From a virus (Duplodnaviria; Heunggongvirae; Uroviricota; Caudoviricetes): a DNA stretch of 43,896 bases. Of the stretch, positions 43,117 through 43,211 are shown in pieces. The notes beneath the pieces were generated by a model. The model did no database searches. It saw nothing but the letters and a program-made list of their open reading frames with translations, and was not told the origin of the DNA. The DNA is taken from the IMG/VR virus record IMGVR_UViG_3300033149_001657, positions 64,001 through 107,896 of that record, one strand, 5' to 3'. Every line of letters begins with the position of its first letter. The first letter of the stretch is position 1. The position numbers and the translations under genes were made by a program.

Positions 43117-43211
43117 TAGCTTAGCCTAACAAACTTCAACCCTATCAGAGCAAATTCTGACCAATCGGATCACACTCTACCTTACCCAATCAAAGATCAT
43201 CAAATCATATC
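43117..43211 (-). ncRNA. 5-nt-periodic G(A/G)Y-NN array, candidate VIPR-type guide RNA (downstream array)
   Basis: 19 in-register pentamers: GATat GATtt GATga TCTtt GATtg GGTaa GGTag AGTgt GATcc GATtg GTCag AATtt GCTct GATag GGTtg AAGtt TGTta GGCta AGCta. Position 1 is G in 13/19 and position 3 is a pyrimidine in 18/19. Confidence 0.75.

Follow-up and report, generated by a model that had tools for sequence, protein, structure and literature searches.

The window analysed here, 43,896 nucleotides long, makes up the final 43.9 kb of a virus record of 107,896 bp that has a 114-bp terminal repeat. Read along the minus strand, the locus consists of an array of approximately 400 nt (genome positions 979-1384), gene X, array A, vipr, array B and gene Z, in this order (Table 1). 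The three arrays of this genome are built of pentamers and stay in phase up to the Shine-Dalgarno sequences of X, vipr and Z, and the largest of them also contains 1-nt register breaks between its guides and a 57-nt non-repeat spacer. No CRISPR-like repeat was detected in the window, and neither cas genes nor a CRISPR array are apparent at the locus. The host of the virus is probably archaeal.

Table 1. Genes and repeat arrays of the vipr locus, in minus-strand order (window coordinates unless marked as genome coordinates).
Feature	Position	Strand	Description
Largest array, upstream of gene X	genome 979-1384, outside window	-	~400 nt, G-H-T/NN, several guides
Gene X, 292 aa	genome 100-978; only the last 15 nt (43882..43896) inside window	-	Conserved vipr neighbour
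Array A, between gene X and vipr	43785..43881	-	Short GAT/NN runs, several phase shifts, ends at vipr Shine-Dalgarno
vipr, 187 aa, stand-alone Cas7-like RAMP	43221..43784	-	Directly upstream of array B; G-loop GIGDRRPEFG
Guide tract, array B, candidate vrRNA 3' of vipr	43142..43211	-	14 in-phase G-H-T/NN pentamers, GATAT to GATAG
Extra G at 43141, then six +1-phase repeat-like units	43111..43141	-	GTTGA AGTTT GTTAG GCTAA GCTAA GGTAT (43140-43111)
Shine-Dalgarno-like GGAGGTGAT of gene Z	43096..43104	-	TTG start at 43090
Gene Z	42584-43090	-	>770 homologs; one comes from a Thorarchaeota-labelled contig

When the product of vipr alone was compared with the PDB by phmmer, it matched 36pp_D, the “SUSP1 Vipr protein”, at an E value of 9.2e-8 over residues 9-186, and a family profile made from 17 homologs matched the same entry at 1.5e-25. 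The AF2 model of the protein has a pLDDT of 94, and its top Foldseek matches are type VII Cas7 and Csm3, with E values from 5e-8 to 1e-5. Judged from these alignments and from the model, the product is a Vipr homolog with a predicted Cas7-like fold (RRM core, thumb and G-loop), and, as a consequence of this homology and of the fold, the locus is a VIPR system. The gene is single-copy in the genome, and co-oriented period-5 arrays lie beside the vipr homolog at every homolog locus examined.

VIPR was described in 2026 as a CRISPR-like viral silencing system in which Vipr polymerises along a vrRNA of GGY/NN units, with one protomer on each pentamer, sequestering the GGY triplets and presenting the NN dinucleotides, which pair with dsDNA under an experimentally tested rule where every third base is skipped (bioRxiv 10.64898/2026.04.26.720920). 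According to the same work, a vrRNA comprises 9-16 repeats, arrays that abut genes upstream and downstream are the usual layout, and natural targets lie for the most part in coding DNA that belongs to rival phages and satellites, the skipped base falling on wobble positions. A previous reading of the tract downstream of vipr, made from its sequence only, had proposed a code of two matches and one skip whose 3-nt period could pass over wobble positions. The first of these ideas is the published VIPR rule, and the second agrees with the position of most skips in published VIPR.

As for the neighbours of vipr, a search of 5.8 billion proteins gave just seven homologs of gene X, and at each of the six loci examined (this virus, L003, L006, L088, L089 and L090) X adjoins a Vipr-like gene and arrays of period 5, the constant motifs of which are G-H-T, GGT, AGY (with the G-loop GSNR) and NN/TTC. 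X is a candidate accessory gene of this VIPR branch; its product resembles metallophosphoesterases solely by language-model (Atlas) features, has no match in Pfam and yields a poor AF2 model (pLDDT 56). Gene Z, on the other side, is absent from the sibling genome G001, belongs to a large family and has no Pfam match, and for these reasons it probably does not belong to the VIPR system.

Array B is periodic at 5 nt on the minus strand, with its phase counted from 43211, so that the reverse complement of 43117-43211 is divided into 19 units. Within the first 14, G occupies position 1 in 11 and T occupies position 3 in 13, which gives a phase score of 24 out of 28 for G1 and T3, compared with 12.3 +/- 1.5, and a maximum of 20, in 5000 dinucleotide-preserving shuffles. 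When both strands of the window were scanned, no further 70-nt stretch reached a score of at least 21. The dinucleotides listed in the sequence-only reading (AT,TT,GA,TT,TG,AA,AG,GT,CC,TG,AG,TT,CT,AG,TG,TT,TA,TA,TA) are exactly those obtained by reading fives from 43211 on the minus strand, and their diversity, which had been set against a microsatellite, is borne out by nine dinucleotide kinds in the first 14 units and an entropy of 1.7-1.9 bits per NN position. As the units vary at three of five positions, Tandem Repeats Finder calls no tandem repeat at the tract. RNA made from it would be poor in C (8 C in 95 nt), no stable fold was found for array B (folding z 0.37), and an Rfam search of the tract returned no family, hammerhead or further ribozyme. 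Promoter and terminator scans gave nothing informative.

The register of array B does not continue through the whole tract. Its last in-phase unit is the fourteenth, GATAG (43146-43142), and the single G at 43141 then shifts the phase, so units 15-19 of the previous reading, including the final TA,TA,TA, are not in register. The array begins at G\GATAT and ends at GATAG\G, the backslash marking the border. In L090, a relative with abutting canonical GGT/NN vrRNAs of 11, 21, 11 and 12 units, the junctions run from a final unit ending in TAG, through a single additional G, into GATAT or GATAA as the first unit. Since the borders of array B match these one-G junctions, the guide is taken as 14 units, read as AT TT GA TT TG AA AG GT CC TG AG TT CT AG. 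Fourteen units between two register breaks, with the limits read from the sequence, lie inside the published range of 9-16 repeats per vrRNA. The target strings decoded previously are consequently correct for units 1-14 and fail from unit 15 onward, past the +1 shift, and nothing marks the internal GGTAAGGT that had been suggested as a guide boundary.

The stretch that follows the shift (43111..43141) could represent another short guide, a terminal element or the leader of gene Z. Its sequence is homologous to the stretch that precedes the gene Z homolog in the sibling L010, where the G and T columns are kept and the NN differ. The terminal GCTAAGCTAAG of the tract contains TAAGCT, a motif that is enriched approximately 10-fold over all arrays of G000, G001 and L006, often near array starts or ends; for instance, GTTAAGCT occurs seven times in the arrays of these three genomes. 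Nevertheless common tails or 3′ motifs could not be defined at the array ends, where a TTAAGAC-like candidate did not hold up. Approximately 50 nt separate the guide end from the start codon of gene Z, and they are filled by repeat-like units and the Shine-Dalgarno sequence; an invariable structured 3′ tail, such as the type II pseudoknot of 40-60 nt, is absent after array B, and there is no room for one.

L010, a sibling virus of 109.7 kb, also carries G-H-T/NN arrays (3692-4000), one stretch of which is nearly identical to part of the upstream array of this virus. They are flanked by a methyltransferase gene and the Z homolog, and there is no vipr in the 8.5 kb covered. From their sequence and position, these arrays may be solo vrRNAs or the outcome of a deletion; they recall the “solo vrRNAs” described in the October 2026 VIPR preprint. 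In the same virus, a RadA/Rad51-like gene (L010:7889-8519) carries an intein, with Hint and Intein_splicing matches, unlike the RadA-like gene of this window (37272-38261, 329 aa), which has none.

The composition of the units was measured on 136 of them, drawn from this virus and from the sibling G001. By position, the entropy is 0.54 bits at G1, 1.80 at position 2, 0.41 at T3, 1.84 at N4 and 1.83 at N5, and thus the NN positions are far less conserved than G1 and T3, as the sequence-only reading had it. Its constant motif, GRY, has to be replaced: the constant triplet is G-H-T, neither GRY nor GGY, and position 2 varies like the NN positions but avoids G (A 53, C 38, T 37 and G 8). Over all arrays of G000, G001 and L006, this position is C-enriched and nearly G-free. 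The arrays do not have the GGY triplet of canonical VIPR. The VIPR papers also admit “a related consensus” and motifs that are not canonical, so that the canonical subtype is excluded here and the family is not. For instance, a preprint on noncoding sequence space reports non-canonical VIPR-like repeats of the kinds GAC/NN, CAC/NN, WGT/NN and TGH/NN (bioRxiv 10.64898/2026.10.21.760802), and the repeat variants NNNGG, YNNNG and NNNNG are given in the VIPR discovery paper. The degenerate pattern G, not-G, U is not among the motifs named in the main texts of the VIPR literature, as far as these are accessible.

The loss of the second G has a possible counterpart in the protein. In the cryo-EM paper on SUSP1 Vipr, H17 and D177 read G1, W178 stacks on G2, a salt bridge of R138 holds G2 and R179 helps to hold Y3. 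In the alignments, the His and Asp that read G1 and the Arg that holds Y3 are conserved in this vipr, and SUSP1 W178 aligns with Arg175 (GDWRP vs GDRRP). With the three proteins that have GD-R-RP, G is the second letter of 0/7, 0/55 and 2/39 strict units; with seven GD-[WYF]-RP loci, it is found there in 79-100% of units. L090, where GGT/NN repeats accompany an aromatic residue in the G-loop, fits too. A second case of covariation between protein and repeat is found in L088 (4960-5870), where AGY/NN arrays (GYNNA in the other register) lie beside a gene X homolog and a Vipr-like protein matches the family profile at an E value of 1.5e-26. Its G-loop is GMGSNR, so that Ser takes the place of the G1-reading Asp of SUSP1 where A takes the place of G1. 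In L089 (4910-6174), NN/TTC pentamers (GAA/NN on the opposite strand) flank a 196-aa protein that carries GGMGCNRF; the Vipr family profile does not match this protein, and the locus may be a very divergent Vipr-like system.

These sequences are suggestive of a Vipr G-loop and a repeat motif that change together. The GD-R-RP set is one clade and represents one evolutionary event, and hence the covariation is suggestive rather than statistical. A broader proposal would be that, in the VIPR branch linked to gene X, the scaffold code has diversified together with the Vipr G-loop, by a Trp-to-Arg change paired with the loss of G2 (this virus, G001 and L006) and an Asp-to-Ser change paired with the change of G1 to A (L088), and that X is an undescribed accessory enzyme. 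We put this forward tentatively, as an idea of less than even standing. If it were true, the guide scaffolds of viruses would be private and orthogonal to one another, and neither the Vipr proteins nor the solo vrRNAs of rivals could hijack them.

The VIPR paper draws its line for targets and self-targets at an NN match of at least 80%. The highest-scoring one-skip match within the virus's own genome reaches 21/32 (66%), the same as with shuffled unit orders, and natural vrRNAs are also reported to lack self-targets in the VIPR paper. Skips of 0 and 2 gave no signal in the own genome, and a skip of 3 recovered only the array itself. Shuffle-like scores were also obtained when every guide of 8 units or more in this virus and in G001 was compared with both complete genomes, and when guides of 10 units or more were compared with 82 kb of relatives' loci.

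Public collections were searched with exact patterns, and so for perfect 9-unit seeds, the matches being judged by extension; targets with scattered mismatches escape such a search. Among viral contigs, the seed of units 1-9 was found at 10 loci, that of units 4-12 at three, that of units 6-14 at two and that of units 8-16 at one, while a shuffled control seed was found at none. The seed of units 4-12 was also found at 26 loci in metagenome contigs and at 12 loci, all in bacteria, in species genomes. A seed from the longest guide of G001 was found at no loci. The matches to units 1-9 fall into two sequence families, one intergenic in phages of the Bacillus cereus group and the other an ORF, neither of which extends, and they were rejected as targets. 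The match to units 6-14, from one phage terminase gene family, was also rejected: it covers ten perfect units, but with the skip on codon position 1. In the 27 distinct seeds of units 4-12, the flanks match on average 3.1 of 10 guide letters, a near-binomial distribution that corresponds to the chance rate. The best match overall, 24/28 (86%), lies in a 2.3-kb contig with 56% G+C and no long ORF in the wobble phase; it passes the nominal line of 80% but is what chance predicts at these database sizes.

Thus, the searches of this genome, the sibling, the relatives' loci and the three collections identified no natural target, and the enrichment of gapped matches over shuffled controls that a decodable guide had led to expect did not appear in the genomes and loci compared or with the seeds in the collections. 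The promise of a decodable, findable target is as yet unfulfilled. This absence carries little weight as evidence, given that the rival element could be missing from the collections.

The same observations could be read differently. Array B could be a decaying or non-guiding Vipr-binding repeat, that is, a remnant array or a leader acting in cis, where Vipr bound to the transcript that runs from vipr into the next gene would tune the translation of this downstream gene, with no target in trans. Such a repeat would agree with arrays that run in phase into the Shine-Dalgarno sequences of X, vipr and Z, although gene-abutting arrays on both sides are the normal VIPR layout. It would also agree with the degeneracy of the constant triplets, five of which are off consensus (TCT, AGT, GTC, AAT and AAG, approximately one third) among 16 units phased as in the sequence-only reading. 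Perturbing GGY abolishes silencing in VIPR, and frequent internal degeneracy was noted there too (bioRxiv 10.64898/2026.04.26.720920). The lack of a tail and of a target can be counted on the same side, but missing targets are expected if the rival is unsequenced, the junctions of array B are clean, like those of the abutting vrRNAs of L090, and its NN diversity equals that of cleaner arrays. We consider a decaying or purely cis-acting repeat, the main rival explanation, unlikely.

TRAP sites are triplets with 2-nt spacers in 5′ leaders. The tract, with its triplets and two-letter spacers in a 5′ leader, resembles such sites, and it could, in principle, be the array of an oligomeric ssRNA-binding regulator of this kind (one subunit per triplet) or, alternatively, a DNA iteron or origin element. 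Against both stand triplets that are G-H-U and not GAG/UAG, the absence of TrpBP (PF02081) from the genome in a search where the B. subtilis control was positive, a neighbouring gene that encodes a protein known to bind such pentamers, and the constant company of such arrays beside homologous genes elsewhere, and we regard these explanations as highly improbable. Finally, a simple repeat without function, arisen by chance or slippage, has only the AT-rich, repeat-prone context in its favour and is effectively refuted, as none of the 5000 shuffles reaches the phase score of array B, three of the five positions vary from unit to unit, unlike in a microsatellite, with no call by Tandem Repeats Finder, and the same architecture is found beside every homolog.

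We therefore return to array B as a vrRNA gene, that is, the gene of a guide RNA, of a non-canonical VIPR system, which we hold to be likely, the points counted against it being the lack of a target, the degenerate triplets and the lack of a type II-like tail. The vrRNA would be transcribed from the minus strand with vipr or just after it, and its ends would be those predicted from the register breaks. One Vipr protomer would then bind each pentamer, holding G1 and U3 and presenting the two variable letters for pairing. These NN would pair with dsDNA that bears the same dinucleotides with one skipped base between them; the one-skip rule comes from experiments limited to GGY repeats in two bacterial systems, and its use with G-H-U would be an extrapolation. 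The predicted target would be AT.TT.GA.TT.TG.AA.AG.GT.CC.TG.AG.TT.CT.AG or the reverse complement of this string, and a gene belonging to a competing element would be silenced by the binding.

In such a case, the locus adds a probably archaeal-virus member to VIPR, with a repeat that lacks the second G and a protein that lacks the residue stacking on G2, and the correspondence between Arg175 and the loss of G2 offers a testable link between residue and base specificity. The decoded 14-unit guide is ready for use in a reporter, and the rival element could be identified later with better-sampled sediment or vent viromes. For annotation, vrRNA callers built on GGY will miss G-H-T arrays.

Among known systems, the analogy with TRAP, which binds (G/U)AG-NN sites in Bacillus trp leaders, goes no further than an oligomer that reads triplets with two variable letters between them; the triplet is another, there is no TRAP gene here, and the variable letters of TRAP sites carry no guide information. 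With the backbones of Class 1 CRISPR (Cas7, Csm3 and type VII Cas7), VIPR has in common the fold, with its RRM core, thumb and G-loop, and a guide RNA that takes up one protomer at each step of fixed length, its bases being flipped periodically. By contrast, the VIPR step is of 5 nt with three letters sequestered, while that of Class 1 CRISPR is of 6 nt with one flipped, and VIPR lacks the repeat-derived handle, Cas5, Cas6, the large subunit and the adaptation genes.

The type II VIPR of SUSP1, which consists of Vipr, vap1 and four vrRNAs (bioRxiv 10.64898/2026.04.26.720920,.720927 and 10.64898/2026.10.15.759431), resembles the locus in its stand-alone Cas7-like protein, in the conserved His/Asp that read G1 and Arg that holds Y3, in the same-strand pentamer arrays on both sides of vipr, in the apparent absence of cas genes and of a CRISPR array and in the lack of a self-target. 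It differs in several respects: G-H-U here replaces GGY, and Arg replaces the Trp that stacks on G2; there is no pseudoknot tail of 40-60 nt here, and the guides abut genes and each other; the neighbour is metallophosphoesterase-like (by features) and not vap1, and the host is probably archaeal. The non-canonical VIPR arrays (10.64898/2026.10.21.760802) share with these arrays the period of 5, a constant part other than GGY and an adjoining Vipr-like fold. Their GAC/NN repeats closely resemble GAT/NN, the dominant unit of array B, and, unlike in those arrays, the middle position is degenerate here (G, not-G, U). VIPR, including its non-GGY repeats, is a known kind of system, and the locus, correctly read, belongs to this recently described kind and not to a new one.
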